DNA of 64,000 nucleotides. It comes from Patescibacteria group bacterium (GTDB taxonomy: Bacteria; Patescibacteriota; Microgenomatia; UBA10105; UBA927). Numbering within the stretch: the stretch's first letter is position 1; the number at the start of each line of letters is the position of its first letter. The notes below the pieces were generated by a model, which saw nothing but the letters and a program-made list of their open reading frames with translations, searched no databases and had not been told where the DNA came from. The position numbers and the translations under genes are program-made. Below are positions 1 through 10,631 of the stretch, piece by piece. The stretch is from assembly GCA_049322955.1 (NCBI GenBank), contig JBMOPU010000012.1, positions 681,517 to 745,516 of the forward strand, in the 5' to 3' direction.

Positions 1-283
1 TTCTTTAAAGAACTTAAATGTAGATAATATAAAAATTATATTTCAAACTTACCTTAGTGAATATATTTTTGCTAGCTTATTACAAAAAGCAGGACAAAAA
101 TTAGGAAAAATATCACATAAAGACGCCATAAGAATCGAAAAAAGAATGAAAGGATATATCTCATCTAAAGTTAATTTAGACTTATCGAATATTGACTTCT
201 CAAAGATGGATTGGAATGGTCAATCAGGAAAAGCATTTGTTCAAAGTATTTTTGAAAAAGCATATGAGTTGATGGAGACATAA
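1..283 (+). CDS. 3' end (93 codons) of an upstream gene running off the window start. Its TAA stop overlaps the ATG of the next gene (TAATG). Possibly the partner that precedes QueC-like genes in Qat-type loci.
   Basis: Frame 2 is open from position 2 to the TAA at 281-283. Its composition (A+T-rich, Lys/Ile/Asn-rich) matches the downstream island genes. Translational coupling to 283..1593. Confidence 0.4.
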   Translation, partial: SLKNLNVDNIKIIFQTYLSEYIFASLLQKAGQKLGKISHKDAIRIEKRMKGYISSKVNLDLSNIDFSKMDWNGQSGKAFVQSIFEKAYELMET

Positions 284-1593
284 TGACAGTGAATACAATA
301 CATGTAAAAACAGGTAAGGAAGATATAAAAATAGCATCTGGTTTGGGAAATCGGATTATTGATTTTACTTCTACAAACACGAACCAGACACTAGAAAAAC
401 CCTTATGGTTGAATCGAGATTTTTACAATTTAGAGTATCAACCAGTTCTTGTTGATTTGTTTCGCTTAGCAACCTCTGTTTTTATCATCGACAAAACTAT
501 TCCGAGAATTGAAGCTTACGATCGTTGGACAAGAGATATAGAACTAAACTTGCCCGTAAGTGACCCATCAATGTGGTACGAGAATACGAATTTAATTGTT
601 AGATTTCTTAGTTTTCTCACAGGAGATCATTGGAAGGTACTTTTTACCCAAGATGAATCCACACAACCACAAAAGGATAAGCAATTAACGAAAAAAGGCC
701 ATAAGCTAGACGTAAAATCAGTTTCACTTTTTTCTGGAGGTTTAGATTCCTTCATTGGTGTAATAGATCAAATAGTTGATACCGAATCAGTAGCAATGAT
801 TGCTCACTACGATCAGGGGCAGGTTTCTAAAGTACAAAAATTATTACATGCTAGCTTGGTGAGCCAATTCCCCTCTGCAAAGGTAGAATTATTACAATTT
901 TTTGTTCAGCCTTTAGCAACCAGCGAAAATACCATGAGAAGTAGATCTCTGCTTTTTCTATCTTTAGGAAGCATAGTTGCATCTAGTATAGGTGTCAAAG
1001 AATTAATAGTTCCTGAAAACGGTTTTATAAGTTTAAACGTGCCTTTAACATACAATCGGCTTGGAAGCTTAAGTACCAGAACAACTCATCCAAACACACT
1101 AAATCTCTTTAATAGACTACTCCAAAACTTAAGAATAGGTGTTTTGGTATCCGATCCTTACAAATTTAAGACTAAAGGGGAAATGTTATCAGACTCTAAG
1201 AGCCTTGAGTATTTGGTCAGTGTTGCAAATGAAACGATGTCTTGTGCACATGCGAATGTTGGTATATATCAACATTTACCACCAAATAGACATTGTGGAT
1301 ATTGCTTGCCTTGTTTAATCAGGAGAGCTGCATTTCATAGAGTTGGCCTTGATGACCCAAAGCACTATACCTTTGATGTATTAGATTTAGATTTTTTAGA
1401 ACAAGATAGTAGCAAAACTAGTGACCTTAGGGCTGTTTTACATAGCATTGAAAGTCATAAGACAAATTCAACATTAACAAATATATTGAAGACTGGACCT
1501 ATATTTCCCATAAATGACTTAGAAAATTTTTGTAAGATATACAATATGGGAATCCTGGAATTAGAAAGCTTTTTAAGTGTATATAAAGATTAG
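283..1593 (+). CDS. QueC-like PP-loop ATPase (7-cyano-7-deazaguanine synthase fold) with a roughly 140-aa N-terminal extension. QatC/Cap9/DpdC-like.
   Basis: SGGLDS PP-loop at about aa 150. RSRSLLFLSLGS and PENGFISLNVPL blocks resemble QueC core motifs. The C-terminal CGYCLPCLIRR cysteine cluster resembles the QueC zinc site. Tight coupling to the downstream TatD gene. Confidence 0.75.
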   Translation: MTVNTIHVKTGKEDIKIASGLGNRIIDFTSTNTNQTLEKPLWLNRDFYNLEYQPVLVDLFRLATSVFIIDKTIPRIEAYDRWTRDIELNLPVSDPSMWYENTNLIVRFLSFLTGDHWKVLFTQDESTQPQKDKQLTKKGHKLDVKSVSLFSGGLDSFIGVIDQIVDTESVAMIAHYDQGQVSKVQKLLHASLVSQFPSAKVELLQFFVQPLATSENTMRSRSLLFLSLGSIVASSIGVKELIVPENGFISLNVPLTYNRLGSLSTRTTHPNTLNLFNRLLQNLRIGVLVSDPYKFKTKGEMLSDSKSLEYLVSVANETMSCAHANVGIYQHLPPNRHCGYCLPCLIRRAAFHRVGLDDPKHYTFDVLDLDFLEQDSSKTSDLRAVLHSIESHKTNSTLTNILKTGPIFPINDLENFCKIYNMGILELESFLSVYKD

Positions 1594-1599
1594 TGTATT

Positions 1600-2346
1600 A
1601 TGGATTTTAGTAAACAATTTGATTATATCGACACTCACTGTCACCTAGACTTGTATAAAAACTATACAGAGGTTATTGAACAGTCTAAAATGTCAAACAC
1701 TTCGATTGTTGCGGTAACAAACCTTCCAACAGTGTTTGAGCGAGAATGCAAGCTATTCAAAAACTATTCAAATGTAATTGTCGCATTAGGTTTTCATCCG
1801 CAATTAGTGAAATCTCATGGAGATCAGGTAAGTCAGATGTTAAGCTTTATGTCTAAAACGCAATTTATCGGTGAAATAGGGCTAGATTATCAAGAAAATA
1901 ATGATGACCTAAAAACGAAACAAAAATACATATTCCAACAAATATTGGACGGTGCAGCAACATATAGGACCAAAATACTTTCTGTGCATAGTAGAAAGTC
2001 CTCCGAAGATGTAGTAGCTATGATTGGATCTAATTTCCCCGGAAACATTATTCTTCACTGGTATAGCGGGTCACAATCGACGTTAAAAAAGGCTTTGTCT
2101 AATGGATATTTATTTTCCGTTAATCCAGCTATGACATTTTCAGCTAGTGGAAGATCTATTATTAATGGTTTGCCACTTGAAAAAATTTTAACTGAAACAG
2201 ACGGTCCATTCACGGAGGTGAATAATAAACAAAGTATCCCTTCAGACATAAGTTTGGTTCTGGACTACTTGGCAAAGTTACATAATCAAACAACTCAAAA
2301 TATCAAAGAAATAATTAAAAATAACTTTTTGAATATTTTGAATTAA
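1600..2346 (+). CDS. TatD-family metal-dependent hydrolase/DNase (QatD-like)
   Basis: N-terminal DTHCHLD motif, IGEIGLDYQ, LSVHSR, ILHWYSG, TETDGPF. This is the full TatD metal-ligand set. 6-nt gap after the QueC-like gene. Confidence 0.8.
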   Translation: MDFSKQFDYIDTHCHLDLYKNYTEVIEQSKMSNTSIVAVTNLPTVFERECKLFKNYSNVIVALGFHPQLVKSHGDQVSQMLSFMSKTQFIGEIGLDYQENNDDLKTKQKYIFQQILDGAATYRTKILSVHSRKSSEDVVAMIGSNFPGNIILHWYSGSQSTLKKALSNGYLFSVNPAMTFSASGRSIINGLPLEKILTETDGPFTEVNNKQSIPSDISLVLDYLAKLHNQTTQNIKEIIKNNFLNILN

Positions 2347-2352
2347 ACAGAT

Positions 2353-3069
2353 ATGGCAACTATTTATGGTCAACCCAGCCGATATCTCAATGCGAATAAA
2401 ACCATAAGCAAATACGGTGCATTAGCCTACCTAATTTACTTTACAGTTATCATCGGAATTGTTATTTGGCGCTTATCAATAGCCTCGTTCTCATTGCCTG
2501 CTGTTTTCGCTATCTCACTTGTATTTGGCCCGATATTACTCGTTACAGACTCACTCATGAGAAAAGAGGAGTCACTAATGTATAAGTTCCGCAGTGGCAT
2601 TGTTGGAGAAAAGCTAATCGGCGATGAATTAAAGAAACTATATGCAAGTTATACGGTATTTGAAGATGTTCATGTCCCGGGCAAGAAAGAGAATATTGAT
2701 TTTGTGGTCGTTGGCGCTACAGGAATTCATGCAATCGAGGTTAAAAATCATCATGGAAAGGTGGGTTTTGATGGAGATGCCCTCACCTTAAACGACAAAC
2801 CATTCGAAAAGGACTTTCTAAGACAGGCCATGCGCGAAGCAACCTCTCTCCATGATTATCTTGTGTCGTCGGGGATTTCTAATGCGTTTGTTGTTCCTAT
2901 CATTGTCTTTTCTCATCGCTTTGCTCTAGTTAGATTTGGGATTCAGCCTATTAAAAATGTTCGTGTTATTCAGTATCGCTGGCTCAACAAAATGATAACC
3001 AGCGAACCGAGAAGTTATCCAGATCAAAAAGTGGTTGATCTAATAAAAAATACCTACATTCAGGCCTAG
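2353..3069 (+). CDS. NERD (nuclease-related domain) protein with two N-terminal transmembrane helices
   Basis: NIDFVVVGATGIHAIEVKNHHGKV matches the NERD core (ID-x-vv-x-G-x-x-x-IE-x-K). Hydrophobic helices at aa 20-65. 6-nt gap after TatD. Confidence 0.65.
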   Translation: MATIYGQPSRYLNANKTISKYGALAYLIYFTVIIGIVIWRLSIASFSLPAVFAISLVFGPILLVTDSLMRKEESLMYKFRSGIVGEKLIGDELKKLYASYTVFEDVHVPGKKENIDFVVVGATGIHAIEVKNHHGKVGFDGDALTLNDKPFEKDFLRQAMREATSLHDYLVSSGISNAFVVPIIVFSHRFALVRFGIQPIKNVRVIQYRWLNKMITSEPRSYPDQKVVDLIKNTYIQA

Positions 3070-3109
3070 TGGCCTGTGTAAGCAAGCTTTTTTGTAAAGT
3101 TGCGGTCAG

Positions 3110-3346
3110 ATGTTAGAATATAAATATATGAATAGCGATTCCATGAATTTGAAAGAGAAAAAAGAGTTTGGAGATAAAGCTCGTGTTGCTAGAGAGAAGT
3201 TATCCCTAACTCAAGCAGATGTAGCCAAAAAAGCCAATATGACCGTCAACTACTACGCCATGATAGAGCGCGGTGAAGCTAATCTGTCCTTTGAAAAAAT
3301 GAAGAGTATCGTAAAAGTTCTGAAACTCAAGATCACTATTTCCTAG
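3110..3346 (+). CDS. XRE/Cro-C1-type helix-turn-helix transcriptional regulator
   Basis: LSLTQADVAKKANMTVNYYAMIERGE is a classic HTH_3 signature. Small protein at the operon end. The true start may be an internal Met. Confidence 0.6.
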   Translation: MLEYKYMNSDSMNLKEKKEFGDKARVAREKLSLTQADVAKKANMTVNYYAMIERGEANLSFEKMKSIVKVLKLKITIS

Positions 3347-3605
3347 CATCAAGCACTAGCTTGGCTGATTCTCTCATCATTTCGACCAGTTTTTCAGCCT
3401 CTTCAAATGTCGCTCTCTTGGGATTCGTTTGTTGTAGGCTCTCCAGAGCAGATTTGAACATCTGATCGTGATTTGCAGTATCTATAGCAAATTGCAATGT
3501 CTCTCTTGGTACTGCCTCAAACTTTTCCTTGCCGATAGCGGTAATCTCATCCCACGGCAACGAAACTATACTGCTATTTTTATCCATGAACGTATTATAG
3601 TCCAA
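3336..3605 (-). CDS. Hypothetical 89-aa protein downstream of the PLD-like gene
   Basis: ORF in the low-GC island, co-directional with the PLD-like gene at a 33-nt spacing. No recognisable motif. Confidence 0.35.
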   Translation of the reverse strand: MDYNTFMDKNSSIVSLPWDEITAIGKEKFEAVPRETLQFAIDTANHDQMFKSALESLQQTNPKRATFEEAEKLVEMMRESAKLVLDARK

Positions 3606-3638
3606 GAAGCTTACTAGAGGAAATTGCCTATATTTCCA

Positions 3639-4079
3639 CTACATGTATTTTCCGTACCCAATAAAGTTAAATAAATCTACGGCGAAGCCGCCGTCCTCAA
3701 GACGGCGCATAAATTCTCTACTTTTTGCCTGAGAAAGGATATTTAGGCTTCCTTCCCAGAGTATATTGCGGTCGATAATGGCTAGTTTCCGGTGGTGATT
3801 ACCTGTACAAAGCAGTACTTGGATGCCAATATTCTCAAATTCTTGGATTTCTAGCTCAGACTGCTCATCATAGCCATCTATGTGCGCTCGTGGGTCTCGA
3901 GTGACTATGTAGATTTTGACATCGCGCGCAACCAAGCGTCGAAACACTGGCCAAAAAGTCTTCATTCTAGCTATGGTAATGAATGGACTTTCGATAATTA
4001 CCTCATTCTGACTATTCTCTAAGTCTGTCAGAAATTTGGAGAAGAAGGTTTTCTCGTCGTGCAAAGAGGTTTTAATCAT
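3639..4079 (-). CDS. Small phospholipase-D-family (Nuc-like) nuclease, HxKx4D
   Basis: HHRKLAIID followed by GSLN fits the HxK(x)4D(x)6GSxN PLD motif. GGAGG RBS 6 nt upstream of the ATG on the minus strand. Confidence 0.65.
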   Translation of the reverse strand: MIKTSLHDEKTFFSKFLTDLENSQNEVIIESPFITIARMKTFWPVFRRLVARDVKIYIVTRDPRAHIDGYDEQSELEIQEFENIGIQVLLCTGNHHRKLAIIDRNILWEGSLNILSQAKSREFMRRLEDGGFAVDLFNFIGYGKYM

Positions 4080-4189
4080 GTAAATCCTCCTCCGACTTCG
4101 ATTGATACAGTTCCATTAACCTGGTAAAATGTACTAGGTAATTGTCGGAGAGCGGTTCAAAATAAGAATCGTCCTCCGCACTAGCGAAC

Positions 4190-4657
4190 ATGGCAGAATT
4201 CCCCCACCACGAAATGAGAGGTGATGAGTCTCGCGTAGTACTTCTACAGGCCCTTCGGGCAATGCAACATCGCATCAGCATTCCGCAACTCATCGACGGA
4301 TCAAGGCTTTCTCCACTTATCAAATTGGGGCTCAATAATCTGATTATGTGTGAAGGAGGCAAGTTTAAATCCGTTCGGGCGGTTCAAGAACTTACGGCAC
4401 TGGATGTGCCGACGCTCATGTTGGAGGGTGGAATTTACCATCTCCACAGGGTCATGCGACAAAATGAAAGAAAAATTGTTCGTAATCTGATGCCGCTTGA
4501 CGATGTTGTCGTCATTGGCCCAGAAAGCATTTTTCGTTACGGTGACCCATCAATTCCCGACAGTGGCTATGGGGAAACGCTAAATAGAATTCCTAACCTC
4601 AGAATGGTGGAAGACGTGATTGACGCGGTACGGTATCTTCGGGAAAGGAACGCGTAG
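4190..4657 (+). CDS. Hypothetical protein (uncertain ORF at the island/host junction)
   Basis: 155-aa ORF with intermediate G+C. No motif recognised. The alternative minus-strand reading is shorter. Confidence 0.25.
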   Translation: MAEFPHHEMRGDESRVVLLQALRAMQHRISIPQLIDGSRLSPLIKLGLNNLIMCEGGKFKSVRAVQELTALDVPTLMLEGGIYHLHRVMRQNERKIVRNLMPLDDVVVIGPESIFRYGDPSIPDSGYGETLNRIPNLRMVEDVIDAVRYLRERNA

Positions 4658-4662
4658 GAGTG

Positions 4663-5118
4663 CTATGTCAATTTTCCTGCAAGCAAAGTAGCCCAATCTT
4701 TTACTGCTTGTTCGTTTGCGGCGAGGCTATAGTAGCGATCAATTTTAAGTGAAGGTACCACGAGGGTAACCGAGAGCTTGTTAAATATTTCCTCCATGAC
4801 ATCAATGGCGCCGCAGTAATGGGGATAGGAAGTGTCTCCGAGACCGATGAGTGCCACTTTCTTCCCCGACAGGTCTTCGTTCGTAAGACTTTCAACAAAC
4901 GCTCGTACTTCGGGGAGAGGCTGTCCGTCTTTCCCTTGATCCTCCCAACTGGGAGAACTGACGATAAGCACGTCATACTCGGCAACCTTCTCGCGGGTCA
5001 CTTCATCGGCGGAAAACATGTCAACGGTATGATTGGCGGTACGAAGTGTTGCGGCGGCAACTTCCGACGCACTCATGGTCGAACCGGACAGGGTGCCATA
5101 GACAAGGAGGCATTTCAT
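4663..5118 (-). CDS. Flavodoxin
   Basis: MKCLLVYGTLSGSTM N-terminal FMN phosphate loop. SPSWEDQG and GLGDTSYPHYCGA flavodoxin motifs. About 150 aa. Confidence 0.8.
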   Translation of the reverse strand: MKCLLVYGTLSGSTMSASEVAAATLRTANHTVDMFSADEVTREKVAEYDVLIVSSPSWEDQGKDGQPLPEVRAFVESLTNEDLSGKKVALIGLGDTSYPHYCGAIDVMEEIFNKLSVTLVVPSLKIDRYYSLAANEQAVKDWATLLAGKLT

Positions 5119-5137
5119 AACTGTGATCTATTATACA

Positions 5138-6187
5138 TTAGTGGAGCGAGTTGTGAACGATCTGTACCACAAAGTCATCAAGCGTCATCCCGTGTGCTTT
5201 GATACTCGCCGTCATGGCATCCCGGGGATCCGGATCAAAGCCTGCATTGGCGTTGGCTTCGAGAAAGTACCACATATTATTTTTCGTATTGAACCGCAGA
5301 TCAAAGCGCGCATAATCCCGAAGACCTAGCGCGTAAAAGGCTCGGATGGAATCTTTGCGAATGCCGGTATCTATCCCTGACTTCAGTTCTTTGGGAGGAG
5401 CGATAAAGTGACAGCTTTGGTATGCGGCCGTGTTTTTTGTCCATTTTTCATCAAAGCCATAGATATTCCATTTATTTTTCCCTTTTGATTTGAATGCGAT
5501 TTCCGCAATGGGAAGTGCATACGTTTTGGTGGGTGTCTCGAGCACAGTGACCTGCAGTTCTTTGCCGGGAATAAATTCCTCCGCTAAAAGCGCCTGTTTA
5601 TGATTTTTTCGCATGGTCTGCACGATTTTCTTAAACTGTTCGTAGGTGGTGGCGATTGATTTGTTGGTAATGCCGATACTGCAGTGTTCAAATGCAGGCT
5701 TGACGATAATCGGAAATTTTCCAGGAAGCATTTTTCGGCTTATGCGGTCATGCAGACGGATAATCGTATATTTCGGCGTCGGCAACGCATATTTTTCAAA
5801 CAAACGTTTTGTTTTCAATTTATTATTGGAAATTTGAATGGCTTTAAATGAGGATCCTGAATACGGAATATGCAGTCTTCCCAATATTTTGGCAATCTCG
5901 ACCTCCATTTTCTTGCTGTCCACGAGATTAAAAACAAAATCTGCTTTGAGATTTTTAAGTTCCGAAAGATCATCGGGTTTTACTTTAATAATCTGTACTT
6001 TATATCCGCGTTTGCGAAAAAGTGCGGTCATATACCGCACGATATCGTCGGTTTGGTTGTCGACGAGTGCATGTTCGGAACTGAAATACGTGTCAGTAAT
6101 ATCCTTGGGAACGTAATGATACAGAATCGCAATGGTGTGCGATTTTTTTGATTTGATATTTTTCTTTTTTGATTTCATAGAACGCAA
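5138..6187 (-). CDS. ATP-grasp enzyme of the D-alanine--D-alanine ligase family
   Basis: Blocks IVKPAFEHCSIGI, EEFIPGKELQVTVLE, ARFDLRF and MWYFLEANANAGFD match the Ddl/ATP-grasp C-terminal fold. The Lys-rich N-terminus is atypical. Confidence 0.7.
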   Translation of the reverse strand: MRSMKSKKKNIKSKKSHTIAILYHYVPKDITDTYFSSEHALVDNQTDDIVRYMTALFRKRGYKVQIIKVKPDDLSELKNLKADFVFNLVDSKKMEVEIAKILGRLHIPYSGSSFKAIQISNNKLKTKRLFEKYALPTPKYTIIRLHDRISRKMLPGKFPIIVKPAFEHCSIGITNKSIATTYEQFKKIVQTMRKNHKQALLAEEFIPGKELQVTVLETPTKTYALPIAEIAFKSKGKNKWNIYGFDEKWTKNTAAYQSCHFIAPPKELKSGIDTGIRKDSIRAFYALGLRDYARFDLRFNTKNNMWYFLEANANAGFDPDPRDAMTASIKAHGMTLDDFVVQIVHNSLH

Positions 6188-6277
6188 CTATTACAACAAC
6201 AAATTTTTTGCCGTTTGTCAAATATACCATAACCATTGTGGCGACCGTATGGTATTTGTTAAAATAGAACCCTTGGG

Positions 6278-6350
6278 GGACGATTAGCTCAACGGCTAGA
6301 GCACTTCGTTTACATCGAAGGGGTTGGGGGTTCGAATCCCTCATCGTCCA
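6278..6350 (+). tRNA. tRNA-Val (anticodon TAC)
   Basis: Hand-folded cloverleaf. Acceptor GGACGAT/ATCGTCC, D-stem GCTC/GAGC, anticodon stem CTTCG/CGAAG with loop TTTACAT, T-arm GGGGG-TTCGAAT-CCCTC. Confidence 0.85.
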
Positions 6351-6419
6351 CTGAATTTGCTCTGTGACGCAGTGTGGGTATCAGGGTATAATTCATTGCA
6401 AAGTGGTGTGATCGGTTTT

Positions 6420-6492
6420 GCTGAGGTAGCCAAGGTGGTCACGGCGCCTGTCTGAAAAACAGGTTATGCGTGTTCGACTCACGCCCTCAGCA
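6420..6492 (+). tRNA. tRNA-Phe (anticodon GAA), CCA encoded at 6493-6495
   Basis: Acceptor GCTGAGG/CCTCAGC, anticodon stem CCTGT/ACAGG with loop CTGAAAA, T-arm GCGTG-TTCGACT-CACGC. 3-bp D-stem with a 9-nt loop containing GG. Confidence 0.75.
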
Positions 6493-6540
6493 CCATAGTC
6501 GTCTATCAGGGTCGAATTAGGAAAGCACACGTGCTTTGAG

Positions 6541-6636
6541 TATAATATCGTCGCAAGGGAGTGCGTTATGTGGAGAGCCCTTGCGACACTCTGGTAGAAA
6601 GGGAGGTTGGAAGGGAAACGTCGTTTCCCGTCCATG
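6541..6636 (+). promoter_or_regulatory. tRNA-Gly leader: TATAAT box followed by a conserved two-hairpin leader (copy A of a repeated motif)
   Basis: TATAAT at 6541. Hairpin GTCGCAAGGG...CCCTTGCGAC and hairpin GGGAAAC-GTC-GTTTCCC. About 75% identical to copy B at 6737-6830, with compensatory stem changes. Confidence 0.45.
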
Positions 6637-6639
6637 AAA

Positions 6640-6711
6640 GCGGCGTTAGTTCACCGGTAGAATGTCTCCTTGCCAAGGAGAAGGTAACGGGTTCAATTCC
6701 CGTACGCCGCT
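6640..6711 (+). tRNA. tRNA-Gly (anticodon GCC)
   Basis: Acceptor GCGGCGT/ACGCCGC, anticodon stem TCTCC/GGAGA with loop TTGCCAA, T-arm ACGGG-TTCAATT-CCCGT. Confidence 0.85.
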
Positions 6712-6736
6712 CAGAGAATCACTATCCAAAATAGGT

Positions 6737-6830
6737 TATAATTATGTCGCGAAGGTGTGCTATATGTATGAGCCCTTCGCGACTCTTTGGTAAATAGGAT
6801 CGTTGGGAAGGGAACATCGTTTCCGTCCCA
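6737..6830 (+). promoter_or_regulatory. tRNA-Gln leader: TATAAT box plus conserved two-hairpin leader (copy B)
   Basis: TATAAT at 6737. Hairpin GTCGCGAAGG...CCTTCGCGAC (a compensatory A-T to G-C change relative to copy A). Second hairpin GGGAAC-ATC-GTTTCC. Confidence 0.45.
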
Positions 6831-6836
6831 GAGAGG

Positions 6837-6908
6837 TGCGGGGTCGTTCAACGGTAGGACACCTGCCTTTGGAGCAGGGTATTCTTGGTTCGAATCCAAG
6901 CCCCGCAG
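6837..6908 (+). tRNA. tRNA-Gln (anticodon TTG) with U1:A72 first pair
   Basis: Acceptor TGCGGGG/CCCCGCA, D-stem GTTC/GGAC, anticodon stem CCTGC/GCAGG with loop CTTTGGA, T-arm CTTGG-TTCGAAT-CCAAG, discriminator G. Confidence 0.85.
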
Positions 6909-6914
6909 CTTATA

Positions 6915-6945
6915 CAAAAATTGCCCATATTGGGCATTTTTTGTA
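6915..6945 (+). terminator. Rho-independent terminator after the tRNA cluster
   Basis: GCCCA-TAT-TGGGC hairpin followed by ATTTTTTGT. An A-tract upstream makes it potentially bidirectional. Confidence 0.6.
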
Positions 6946-7088
6946 TATACGGGGTTTATGGTAAGAACCGACATTGGTTCGAAAATGAGGAGTCGTTATA
7001 GCGACAACGATCGCTGTAACAGCGAATCATTCATGGAGTCTTGCTTTGCGACACGAATATCTTCCAAGCCCCGCAATCTGCATTAAAT

Positions 7089-7988
7089 TTACCTCGATTT
7101 TTCGCTTTCCAATCGATTCATTGCAATAACTGAAAAACTGATGATGGCTCCGCCCAAGACGTCTCTTGGCATGGGGGCTTCGCCGAAGAATATAAATCCC
7201 AGAAATACGGCAAACAAAGCCTCTAGAGTCAAAATATTGCCTGCAAGCACTGCTTCAAGTTTTTGAAAGCCGTAATTAGTGAGGAAAACATTGAGGGCAT
7301 TGAAAATGCCTGCACCGATAACCGCGAATAGTAATCCCCAATTCCAACCGGCAAGCGGCAGACCGTCACCTTTGAAAAGCGAGACGAGAAAGACCGCCAA
7401 AAATGCTACGAAAAAATTGGCGACGGTTAATTCCGTATTGTTGAGAAAATCCGACTGCCATCTTCGTGCCACATAACTTAATGAAAAGAATACGGTGGAT
7501 GCCTGGGTGATCATTTCACCGCGACTCCAGTTAAATATATTGGAATAGTCCTGTACCGATATGATAAAAACGCCTATAAACGCCAAAACAATATACAATG
7601 CCTTTTTAAAAGAGAATTTTTCGCCGAGAAGCAAAAACCCCAACAGTGCCGTCATCGGCAACGCGCTGATAAAAGACACGTTCGCATATTTGGTGACAAG
7701 AATCGCTTGTGTAAAAAGGATAATACCAAAAAGTGAATAGGAAACTGCTCTGAGCAGTATAATCAACCAATCTTTTGCAGATATCTTTAAAAATTTCTTG
7801 AAATCAATTTGTTTCCTGAAAAGTATTAGACATATAAGTAATGCCGCAAACATGCGCAAATAAACCTGCTGAAATAAAAGGAATCCCGTTGCCAGGTAGC
7901 GTGCAAAAAGACCCATCGACGCAAAAACCAACGCTAAAAGGATAAGAGCAATAACCCCTTTGTGTTTATCAGAATTACGCATGTTCAT
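7089..7988 (-). CDS. EamA/DMT-family transporter (10 TM)
   Basis: Two repeated hydrophobic EamA-like halves. Typical length and TM spacing. Confidence 0.75.
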   Translation of the reverse strand: MNMRNSDKHKGVIALILLALVFASMGLFARYLATGFLLFQQVYLRMFAALLICLILFRKQIDFKKFLKISAKDWLIILLRAVSYSLFGIILFTQAILVTKYANVSFISALPMTALLGFLLLGEKFSFKKALYIVLAFIGVFIISVQDYSNIFNWSRGEMITQASTVFFSLSYVARRWQSDFLNNTELTVANFFVAFLAVFLVSLFKGDGLPLAGWNWGLLFAVIGAGIFNALNVFLTNYGFQKLEAVLAGNILTLEALFAVFLGFIFFGEAPMPRDVLGGAIISFSVIAMNRLESEKSR

Positions 7989-8015
7989 CTTGGTGCAATG
8001 GAATTTTTGGTGGTA

Positions 8016-9359
8016 CTACTTCCCTCTCGTCACCGTGTACAGTTTGGGGTAATACAGGAAGATCGCGGGAGCCTCTTCCACAAGTCTACGCTGGAAATCC
8101 GTATAGATAAGTTTGCGCTTTTCCTGATCAAGTTCCACCCTTCCGTCTTCCAATAGCTTATCGATTTTTACGTTCACGTATCCTGTGATATTCGTCGGTC
8201 CCTGGGTGGAGTGCCAGAACGGATATTGATCAGGATCGGGCGGAACGTCCTGCGCGCTTAACAACACCTGGTAGTCTTGAGGCACCGTACTTTCCACCTG
8301 CACCTTGGTCGGCATGCCAAGAGCCGTCCAGGAGGCCGCTATCTTTTGTGCCGTATCCAAATAGGAAGGGAAGGTGGAAAGCGTCAGTTGTCCCGATTCG
8401 GTTGCCAGCCTGGTTTGCCCGATCATCTTCTTTGCCTCGATCGGATTATAGGTGTAGTTTTTGACGTTTTTGGCATATGCCCACGACGTTTTACTGATCG
8501 GTGATCCGGCCTTTTCGTACGGCAATTCCGGAATACCGTACGCCAATCCCTGACGGATTGTTTTGTCACTCAGCTCAGGGTTACGCATGTTAAAAAATAA
8601 CGTAACGATGCGGTCATATTTAGTTTGTTCGGTCACGGTCACGTTTCCCCAGTTTGCCAGTGCCGACACAGTACTCATTTCCACTAACTCGTCAATTTCT
8701 CCCAGCTGGAACGCAAGTTGTGCCTGTGCTTCGGTCTGATAGAAGGTAAATTGTTTCGGCGTAAGCTTTTCGCCGAGTTTCGGATATAACGAAACAGATT
8801 TGACACTCCCTCCCGCAAGCTGAATATTCCCGACGCTATATTTCCCAATCCCGGTGAGGCCGGGCAGAAAGACGGGTTTTGAAAGCAATGAGGGAAACGG
8901 GCTATACGGATATTGCAGATGCGCAATCAGCATGTTATCTCCGGTAGGAACAAAGGTGACGCCCCGTATATTGTAATTCACGTCCAGTGCGGTGACGGTT
9001 TTGCCGTTATGCCAGGTAACATCCTTTTTTAGGGTAAAAATAAATGTTTTGCCGCTATTGGTCGCTTCCCATTTCTCGCTCAATGCAGGTTTTGGAGTGC
9101 CGTCGGGTGCAAGCTCCGTTAATCCTTGGCTGATAAGCTGTTGGATTGACGCGGGTAAGTTGGACGGACTGTATTCGCCTACCATACCGACTCGGTCCAT
9201 ACGATAGGTGAGCGAACGGGCAAAAAACGGATAGGCACGCCAGAAGAGCACAGAAAGCAACAATCCCGCGACAAATCCAAGCACCAGTGAACGGGTGTAC
9301 TTACGGGCGAGTTCTATGACAACAAGGAAAAAAAGCCGTACCGATCTAGGTCGAAACAT
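8016..9359 (-). CDS. ABC transporter substrate-binding protein, family 5 (peptide/nickel type), membrane-anchored
   Basis: N-terminal TM anchor. The FTLKKDVTWHNGKTVTALDV block is typical of SBP_bac_5 (OppA/DppA-like). Confidence 0.7.
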   Translation of the reverse strand: MFRPRSVRLFFLVVIELARKYTRSLVLGFVAGLLLSVLFWRAYPFFARSLTYRMDRVGMVGEYSPSNLPASIQQLISQGLTELAPDGTPKPALSEKWEATNSGKTFIFTLKKDVTWHNGKTVTALDVNYNIRGVTFVPTGDNMLIAHLQYPYSPFPSLLSKPVFLPGLTGIGKYSVGNIQLAGGSVKSVSLYPKLGEKLTPKQFTFYQTEAQAQLAFQLGEIDELVEMSTVSALANWGNVTVTEQTKYDRIVTLFFNMRNPELSDKTIRQGLAYGIPELPYEKAGSPISKTSWAYAKNVKNYTYNPIEAKKMIGQTRLATESGQLTLSTFPSYLDTAQKIAASWTALGMPTKVQVESTVPQDYQVLLSAQDVPPDPDQYPFWHSTQGPTNITGYVNVKIDKLLEDGRVELDQEKRKLIYTDFQRRLVEEAPAIFLYYPKLYTVTRGK

Positions 9360-9375
9360 AGCGGTTCACCGGTCG

Positions 9376-9591
9376 TCAATGAATGGCGACATTGATAAGC
9401 GACGTGATTAAAAATAACACGCCCACGACGATGGTTCCGGTGAAGATGACTTTTTCTGCCCCCCGTTTGGTCCGATACAGTTCTCCGCCGCCGAGTCCCC
9501 CGCCCAAACCGCCTTTACTGCTTTGGAGGAGGATAAGCCCCATAAGGGTTACGGAAAGTATGACCTGTAAAACTAAAAATACGGTACCCAT
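9376..9591 (-). CDS. secG: Preprotein translocase subunit SecG
   Basis: 71 aa, two TM helices flanking the LLQSSKGGLGGGLGGG glycine-rich loop characteristic of SecG. Confidence 0.75.
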   Translation of the reverse strand: MGTVFLVLQVILSVTLMGLILLQSSKGGLGGGLGGGELYRTKRGAEKVIFTGTIVVGVLFLITSLINVAIH

Positions 9592-9593
9592 AG

Positions 9594-10631
9594 TTATGGT
9601 GTAATAATACCAGCTAATGCCTCCGCAAGTCTATCGCTACTGTGTCGGATGAGGCTCCGGATGAGCGCATCGGAGGACGATTTCTTATACAGCGTATTAC
9701 TCACCAGTTTCCCCGTTCGGACCTTGTAGTAGCTGTTGCGCGGAAGATTATCGATAACAGGCGCTTCATGAGCCTTGGCATACACTTCCAGTGCCTTGGG
9801 TGAAAGTGGGGCGGTGTTGACTAATACATGATCGATTGATTGACCGATGATTTTTTCAACGGCGTTGACATGATCGACGGCGGTAAAGTTGTAGGTCTGG
9901 CCGAATTTGGTCATGAGGTTTAACACATAGACGATCTCCGCCTTCGTTTCTTTGAGCGCCTTGGCAATTCCCTCGACCAAAAGATTCGGCAGTAAGCTGG
10001 TGTAGAGATCCCCCGGACCAATGACCACCATATCGGCATTTTTGATGGCGGCAATCGCTTCGGGATTGGCTTTCGCATTGGGTTTTAAGGAGACATCGGT
10101 GATCTTGAGGGTACCGTCGTGTGTCGGTTCGTCGATAAGATGCTCTTCGGTAACCGTGGTGCCGTCTTCATAGGTGGCATAGAGGTTGGTTTCGGTGAGG
10201 GTTACGGGGATAACCGCACCTTTTATGCGAAGTACTTTCCCCGTCTGCTTGATCGCCTCATCCTGACTGCCCATGATGTCGGTTAAGGCGGCCATAAAGA
10301 GGTTTCCGAACGTCATACCGGCAATTCCCTGCCCCTTCTCGAAACGGTACATAAAAAGCTTGCGTAAGATTCCTATACCCCCGTTTTCGTCGGAAAGCGC
10401 CACGAGACATTGGCGGATGTCGGAGGTGGGAAGCAGGCCGAACTCATCACGAATCCTTCGGTTACTTCCTCCCGAATCACTCATGGTGACGATGGCGGTA
10501 AGCGAAAGCGGGTATTGCTTGAGCCCCCGAAGCGCGACAAAAGTACCCGTTCCCCCGCCGATGCACACGACTTTTTTGAGGTTCTGTTGTTTTGTTGCCA
10601 TAGCCGTTCGATTAGGACTCGGAAATGTCAT
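9594..10631 (-). CDS. YvcK/CofD-like gluconeogenesis-factor family protein (UPF0052)
   Basis: N-terminal VVCIGGGTG motif, MSDSGGS block and overall length fit the CofD/YvcK family. Confidence 0.7.
   Translation of the reverse strand: MTFPSPNRTAMATKQQNLKKVVCIGGGTGTFVALRGLKQYPLSLTAIVTMSDSGGSNRRIRDEFGLLPTSDIRQCLVALSDENGGIGILRKLFMYRFEKGQGIAGMTFGNLFMAALTDIMGSQDEAIKQTGKVLRIKGAVIPVTLTETNLYATYEDGTTVTEEHLIDEPTHDGTLKITDVSLKPNAKANPEAIAAIKNADMVVIGPGDLYTSLLPNLLVEGIAKALKETKAEIVYVLNLMTKFGQTYNFTAVDHVNAVEKIIGQSIDHVLVNTAPLSPKALEVYAKAHEAPVIDNLPRNSYYKVRTGKLVSNTLYKKSSSDALIRSLIRHSSDRLAEALAGIITP

Follow-up and report, generated by a model that had tools for sequence, protein, structure and literature searches.

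A predicted membrane-anchored NERD nuclease gene behind a QatABCD operon: probable resident border of a defence-cassette hotspot in Patescibacteria

Related systems and how this locus compares

Hotspots in which alternative defence cassettes occupy the same place between conserved genes are a known phenomenon; hotspot 5 of the SXT ICEs, the hotspots of P2/P4 prophages and the core hotspots of Pseudomonas are examples. The reduced genomes of Patescibacteria are usually described as defence-poor. The T4SS of the Patescibacteria is chromosomal, widely conserved and relaxase-less (PMC12102498). One of the cargos relevant to the present locus is the Qat system; a published survey lists 98.1% of 631 qat clusters as plain qatABCD (PMC13434339).

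Among proteins with a NERD domain, ZwsA (Zowangsin) has been described as an RNA endonuclease that acts against RNA phages; mutations of its residues E535, D567, E580 and K582 impaired the antiphage activity, and the K582A variant served as an inactive control (bioRxiv 10.64898/2026.04.06.716636). The spacing of these four residues matches that of E86, D116, E129 and K131 in the NERD protein studied here. However, ZwsA is soluble, large and composed of several domains (VHS, DUF647, S4), whereas our protein consists only of a predicted membrane hairpin and the NERD domain, and the likeness of the active sites does not imply a shared substrate. PADLOC also matched the protein weakly to the NERD-like N-termini of PglW (BREX type 2; 5.9e-06) and MkoA (Mokosh; 6.1e-03), but PglW and MkoA comprise about 1400-1600 amino acids with further regions outside the matched part, as compared with 238 amino acids here, and the locus contains no further genes of BREX or Mokosh systems. 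Structurally, there is no difference from the two-helix, single-domain proteins of the Pfam NERD family (PF08378), with which the protein shares its length of about 240 amino acids, the layout and the E...D...ExK residues.

The four genes upstream of the NERD gene constitute a canonical Qat operon; the NERD gene itself, which is missing from the 70 Qat loci surveyed and from the closest foreign Qat cassettes, is not a component of it and occurs without Qat in relatives. Like the known defence hotspots, the region described below has conserved flanks, alternative systems, sometimes only an IS element as its content, and a cargo whose composition is unlike that of the flanks. Unlike them, it adjoins the chromosomal, relaxase-less T4SS of Patescibacteria, and the gene on its right flank encodes a predicted nuclease and has had its upstream TATAAT box overwritten by some of the cassettes. 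The phenomenon as such is known, and the present case adds an example from a phylum that has been little studied; our literature search retrieved neither a published description of this M23/VirB4...NERD hotspot nor a paper that treats NERD together with Qat.

The NERD gene and its genetic surroundings

The window, i.e., the whole stretch of 64,000 nucleotides that was analysed (contig JBMOPU010000012.1 of the Patescibacteria assembly GCA_049322955.1, positions 681,517 to 745,516), begins within the Qat operon. The following features were assigned at its left end:

2..283, plus strand: 3' end of qatB (frame-2 translation; the left window edge cuts the gene)
283..1593, plus strand: qatC, QueC-like (PADLOC QatC, 2.3e-106; Pfam QueC, 8.1e-08)
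1600..2346, plus strand: qatD, TatD-family nuclease (PADLOC QatD, 2.2e-71; TatD_DNase, 2.7e-51), last gene of the inserted Qat cassette
2347..2352, plus strand: spacer, right-hand junction of the Qat cassette (upstream comparison of 18 loci)
2353..3069, plus strand: gene for a predicted membrane-anchored NERD (PD-(D/E)xK-type) nuclease of 238 amino acids (open reading frame, Pfam, alignment)
2413..2547, plus strand: codons for two hydrophobic helices, amino acids 21-39 and 46-65 (hydropathy, charge count, AF2 helices)
2596..2913, plus strand: NERD domain, amino acids 82-187 (Pfam match)
2608-2610, 2698-2700, 2737-2739 and 2743-2745, plus strand: catalytic codons for E86, D116, E129 and K131 (alignment, coordinates checked)
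2824-2826, plus strand: codon for the invariant residue Q158 (alignment)
3061..3093, plus strand: hairpin CAGGCC-TAGT-GGCCTG over the NERD stop codon (RNA fold, -21.8 kcal/mol, z = -2.9)
3092-3119, plus strand: promoter-like site TTGTAA-16-TAGAAT (consensus scan), followed by the gene of a small HTH_3 regulator that extends to 3346
3336..3605, minus strand: 89-codon open reading frame without family match, paired with the PLDc_2 gene
3639..4079, minus strand: gene for a PLDc_2 protein of 146 amino acids (Pfam PLDc_2, 9.5e-10)

The open reading frame of the NERD protein starts with an ATG, and six nucleotides separate it from the end of the qatD stop codon at 2346, exactly as the initial annotation had reported. 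The qatB stop codon overlaps the qatC start codon (ATGA). The contig of locus L001 is identical to window positions 1-4181 and extends beyond the left end of the window, where it carries QatA (KAP_NTPase) and QatB (PF28083) upstream of qatC; window and L001 together thus contain a complete QatABCD operon for the KAP NTPase QatA, QatB, the QueC-like QatC and the TatD-type QatD. On L001, the operon is preceded by a T4SS block that encodes a TrbC-like pilin, a T4SS_pilin protein, a TraC-like protein, a VirB4-type ATPase and an M23 peptidase. For the exact proteins, NCBI gives the names QatD (MFZ5535242.1) and, for the NERD protein, 'nuclease-related domain-containing protein'.

When the NERD gene is compared with its orthologues, third codon positions account for 124-140 of the 164-222 nucleotide differences (e.g., 130 of 169 in the comparison with L003), a concentration which argues for a real gene under purifying selection.

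The NERD protein and its family

The initial annotation described the product of the gene as a membrane-anchored NERD protein, and the domain assignment, the active site and the predicted topology all agree with this description. Pfam NERD (PF08378) matches amino acids 82-187 with an E-value of 3.8e-15 and 56.8 bits (gathering cut-off 22.1), and the match covers positions 2-111 of the 111 profile positions. In an alignment of 13 sequences with identities down to 34%, the residues E86, D116, E129-x-K131 and Q158 are invariant, so that all four catalytic residues are in place. Foldseek searches against the PDB returned PD-(D/E)xK nucleases as nearly all of the top matches, but these matches are weak (best E = 2.9e-3). 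A PDB search with the family profile revealed no solved homologue by sequence, and gave only marginal matches of the hydrophobic N-terminus to membrane proteins.

Two hydrophobic stretches, in which the Kyte-Doolittle mean over 19 residues reaches 2.29, are located at about amino acids 21-39 and 46-65; hydropathy values exceed 1.6 across amino acids 18-69, with two maxima in this region. The N-terminal tail has a charge of +3 (three positive residues, no negative one). In the AlphaFold model (AF2; pLDDT 80.4 overall and 83-93 over most of the NERD domain), two long helices (H10-43 and H48-94) precede an alpha/beta core. Hydropathy, charge and modelled helices fit two predicted transmembrane helices; we infer that these form a membrane hairpin with both ends in the cytoplasm. 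Most likely, the NERD domain is thus held at the cytoplasmic face of the membrane by the two-helix hairpin.

A wider comparison showed that this architecture is common. An HMMER scan of 1.84 billion cluster representatives (clusters at 50% identity) found 1998 relatives at E<=1e-3, and the best 149 of these were inspected. Full-length proteins (at least 225 amino acids) account for 128 of the best 149; N-terminal hydrophobic segments are present in each of these 128, with a span sufficient for two helices in 117, and the D...ExK motif is found in 115. Since the architecture recurs across about 2000 clusters, it represents a common stand-alone family and no unusual fusion, and the protein encoded at 2353..3069 is an ordinary member of this known, widespread and already annotated family. 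'Truncated' homologues of 171 amino acids, which also appeared in the searches, are mostly artefacts of gene calling; at least the one in L107 is full length when read from an upstream start. Distant relatives (34-38% identical) are situated near RadC, RhuM, Mrr and NYN genes, and no T4SS genes lie within 10 kb of them.

Variable cassettes between the T4SS block and the NERD gene

The surroundings of the NERD gene were compared in 25 loci from metagenomes that contain NERD orthologues (74-95% amino acid identity). In these loci, the position of the NERD gene is constant: it follows the T4SS block (VirB4, M23 peptidase) and precedes the pair of a small open reading frame and a PLDc_2 gene on the other strand. 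Identities across the loci amount to 74-95% for NERD, 85-90% for VirB4 and 73-94% for the M23 peptidase; the divergence of NERD thus tracks that of the backbone. The slot between the M23/VirB4 genes and NERD, on the other hand, holds at least 11 different contents:

window/L001, L009, L013: QatABCD
L002/L003: Gabija (GajA 1.6e-215, GajB 3e-112)
L105: CBASS-like set (Peptidase_S24, SAVED, AAA, Cap8, HORMA, SMODS)
L016: PDC-M68A/B, ABC-3C type (1.5e-66 and 4.6e-183)
L018: DUF4365-TPR-PIN protein of 1245 amino acids
L010: HerA, plus DUF2779 on the other strand
L014, L015, L017, L019: AAA_13 / PDC-S06-like ATPase
L107: AAA and Peptidase_S8
L108: AAA_15/21 protein
L109: SMC-like protein of 1002 amino acids
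L011: IS200-type transposase as the sole content

Six of the at least 11 contents match models of named or candidate defence systems or Pfam defence domains (Qat, Gabija, PDC-M68, HerA, AAA_13/PDC-S06 and the CBASS-like set); Qat, Gabija, PDC-M68 and HerA were called by PADLOC models, and the CBASS-like set by its Pfam domains. At least 20 of the orthologous loci possess NERD without Qat. The only DNA that the window and the Gabija locus have in common is the NERD gene (76% nucleotide identity) and a piece of the PLD gene. On L001, the hotspot spans 5152-10000, and equivalents exist in L003, L010, L011, L014-L019, L105 and L107-L109.

IS elements are active in this island. The IS200-type transposase of L011 is encoded at 365-760, and in L024 an IS200-type Y1 transposase (2924-3534) lies beside a NERD gene of which only the last 44 codons are left. 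In L015, the AAA_13 cassette is broken up by an rve transposase (289-1206), and an IS66-like fragment is present on L014 (4059-5003). The NERD gene of L019 is frameshifted. A search for att-like direct repeats and meaningful inverted repeats flanking the Qat cassette on L001 gave only short AT-rich chance matches, and there is therefore no sign of site-specific integration. Homologous recombination via the conserved flanks would be the simplest mechanism for the exchange of the cassettes.

Qat loci of other microorganisms

The initial annotation considered the NERD gene to be an unusual addition to a Qat-like core and suggested a survey of NERD genes behind QatD in other genomes. An alignment of 20 QatC proteins was prepared, and 80 Qat loci, each of a different species, were collected across many phyla. 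The HMM of the NERD family found no match among all open reading frames of these 80 loci, even at E<=10. A downstream set was assembled from 70 loci of other species and consists of 107 open reading frames of 90-950 amino acids that start within 1.3 kb after QatD; a Pfam scan detected NERD in none of the 107, the sole match being the window protein that had been included as a control. The genes found downstream of QatD in these 70 loci are a mix that includes integrases, YhcG nucleases and methylases. Likewise, NERD is absent beside the closest foreign Qat cassettes (QatC 61-65% identical), behind which lies either a 185-aa open reading frame other than NERD, together with an M23 gene in inverted orientation, or an open reading frame resembling DUF2779. 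The Qat cassette of L110 (1-6276; QatC 65% identical) belongs to the first type: a 185-aa open reading frame of no family takes the place of NERD, and the M23 neighbour (60% identical) has the opposite orientation.

The survey thus revealed no recurrence of NERD after QatD, and together with the constancy of the NERD position behind at least 11 slot contents this speaks against an addition to the Qat core.

The Qat/NERD junction and transcription

Among the 18 loci whose upstream regions were compared, similarity begins at the NERD ATG. In L010, L011, L012 and L020, whose NERD proteins are 91-93% identical and in which no co-oriented cassette lies directly upstream of NERD, a TATAAT box occupies positions -14 to -9 relative to the gene; in L016 and L105 such a box is found 6 nt before the ATG. 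The box is gone in the three Qat loci, where the qatD coding sequence reaches to 6 nt before the NERD start codon. The spacing of the TATAAT boxes suggests that transcription would start at, or very close to, the NERD start codon. TATAAT-like boxes only 6-8 nt before start codons are seen not only in the NERD orthologues but also in front of the HTH gene of the window (TAGAAT, 3114-3119), whose open reading frame is listed from 3110 but probably begins only with the ATG at 3128, at a distance of 8 nt from the -10 box. These arrangements suggest that leaderless or near-leaderless transcripts may be made in this lineage.

On the plus strand, consensus scans detected no promoter-like site from 1691 to 3092, nor did they call a terminator-like site in the interval that separates qatD from NERD; candidate promoters of the Qat operon, identified by their motifs, lie upstream of qatA on L001. 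An independent promoter and terminator separating the NERD gene from qatD would have contradicted the proposal of the initial annotation that the gene is co-expressed with the QueC-like and TatD genes; as neither is recognisable, co-transcription remains plausible, although a shared function does not follow from it. Because the Qat insertion has replaced the TATAAT box, read-through from the Qat operon can readily be envisioned, and the NERD mRNA in this genome probably originates from it, as judged from sequence motifs. With no recognisable promoter of its own and only 6 nt from qatD, the gene would be expressed together with Qat if it is expressed at all. The hairpin over the NERD stop codon is followed, after 11 nt, by a run of six T residues; the two elements might act as a weak terminator, although the consensus terminator scan did not call this site.

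The junction is visible in the base composition as well. The qatA-D genes have GC3 values of 26-30% (qatD 30.5%); NERD, at 37.7%, lies between these and the values of the T4SS genes (42-45%) and the PLD gene (46%). Within the window, whose overall GC content is 49%, a sharp GC3 step separates positions 1-2346 from positions 2353-4079.

Interpretation of the locus

We consider it very probable that the NERD gene is a resident, vertically inherited chromosomal gene which borders a defence hotspot, and that its coupling to Qat is a by-product of insertion. According to this model, the gene would form the right-hand border of a defence-cassette hotspot that lies beside the conserved chromosomal T4SS block. 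A canonical QatABCD operon of foreign composition would have been inserted into the slot as one of many interchangeable cargos, and its insertion would have ended 6 nt before the NERD ATG, thereby displacing the TATAAT box. Since then, NERD would have been transcribed by read-through from the Qat operon; the coupling appears incidental and does not speak for a shared function.

The initial annotation went further and envisioned an effector module of two nucleases with a membrane-associated step. Read in this way, NERD would be a fifth functional Qat component and a second, membrane-associated nuclease effector that works with QatD. The 6-nt gap, the lack of promoter- or terminator-like sites between the two genes and the intact catalytic residues are all compatible with such a role, and the order Qat-NERD is kept in the three contigs L001, L009 and L013. 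These three contigs, however, represent a single lineage (Qat proteins 90-98% identical), and NERD orthologues that are 85-92% identical follow Gabija, CBASS or HerA genes or only an IS200 element. Furthermore, none of the 107 open reading frames after QatD contains NERD, the nearest foreign Qat cassettes have other neighbours, the GC3 value changes sharply at the junction where Qat meets NERD and the backbone, and Qat is described as a four-gene system (PMC13434339). A function of NERD as a Qat component is hence extremely improbable in our view, and appears to have been largely refuted already by the comparative data. Could NERD instead serve whichever cassette happens to be present, as a shared, co-transcribed partner acting as a common membrane-tethered nuclease or executioner, a safety device or a cassette-capture factor? 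About 10 of 12 slot contents are co-oriented with NERD and end 6-50 nt before its ATG, a strict common orientation and tight spacing for which a shared partner would account, and the gene is under purifying selection across all states of the slot. The orientation is also explained by that of the adjacent T4SS operon, however, and NERD retains its TATAAT box where the slot holds only IS200 or a gene on the opposite strand. In L024 all but 44 codons of the gene have been lost, in L019 it carries a frameshift, and distant members of the family are not found beside such cassettes. Gabija, CBASS and Qat are, moreover, self-sufficient in foreign hosts, which also counts against a shared partner. We regard this possibility as very unlikely.

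An unlikely, but still somewhat more credible, role would be that of a functional part of the T4SS locus which processes transported DNA or RNA or contributes to nucleic-acid salvage, and thus does not act in defence. In this lineage, NERD is always located on the same side of the T4SS block and in the same orientation, a PLD-type nuclease gene is conserved nearby, and L024 contains a coupling-protein gene. On the other side of the balance, NERD is set apart from the T4SS genes by up to 5 kb of unrelated cassette DNA. No nuclease component is named in the published survey of this T4SS (PMC12102498), and within 10 kb of the distant family members (34-38% identical) T4SS genes are absent; for these two reasons, NERD as a T4SS component was rejected as the main reading.

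As to the function of the resident NERD protein, we can offer a guess in which our confidence is less than even: it might act on its own as a metal-dependent endonuclease which, tethered to the inner face of the membrane, cleaves foreign nucleic acid on its way in and thereby contributes to defence or exclusion. This suggestion is derived from the intact active site, the location in a defence island and the occurrence of distant relatives near RadC, RhuM, Mrr and NYN genes.

A gap of 6 nt and the look of an operon are not enough to assign an adjacent nuclease to a defence system, and it would be wrong to annotate the present arrangement as a 'five-gene Qat variant'. The position of NERD behind Qat looks incidental and ordinary; the hotspot itself is mildly interesting. 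It is well defined, has at least 11 contents and lies beside the conserved chromosomal T4SS of groundwater Patescibacteria. Because genomes of this group are usually described as defence-poor, the hotspot flanks could anchor the mining for new systems. Judging from the promoter motifs, the hotspot would also be an example of a resident gene whose expression is altered when the cassette beside it is exchanged.

Genes to the right of NERD

The PLDc_2 gene and the 89-codon open reading frame form a pair that every long orthologous locus has on the right side of NERD, with PLD proteins that are 47-95% identical; we take the 146-aa PLDc_2 protein of the window to be a small, Nuc-like protein of the PLD type. 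In most orthologous loci, an open reading frame of 98-108 amino acids without family match overlaps the NERD stop codon by 4 nt, and its product may thus be a translationally coupled partner. The lineage of the window lacks this open reading frame and has the HTH_3 gene after NERD instead. It was located at the following positions:

L003: 4019-4327
L017: 1549-1875
L105: 10735-11043
L107: 10513-10809
L108: 10717-11043
L109: 4021-4317

A second variable stretch is present between NERD and the PLD pair (L003 4389-6251; L105 11105-14370). It contains a small HTH gene and a gene for a protein of 545 amino acids that neither Pfam nor PADLOC matched; a Shedu-type SduA_C gene is additionally present in the L105 stretch. 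As variable DNA is thus found on the right side of NERD too, the gene may be a resident of the island rather than a plain core flank.

Further to the right of the PLD gene, relatives such as L011 and L024 lack counterparts of the window genes at 4190-6187 in the corresponding place. A cluster of four tRNA genes (Val-TAC, Phe-GAA, Gly-GCC and Gln-TTG) follows at window positions 6278-6909, some 2 kb beyond the PLD gene.
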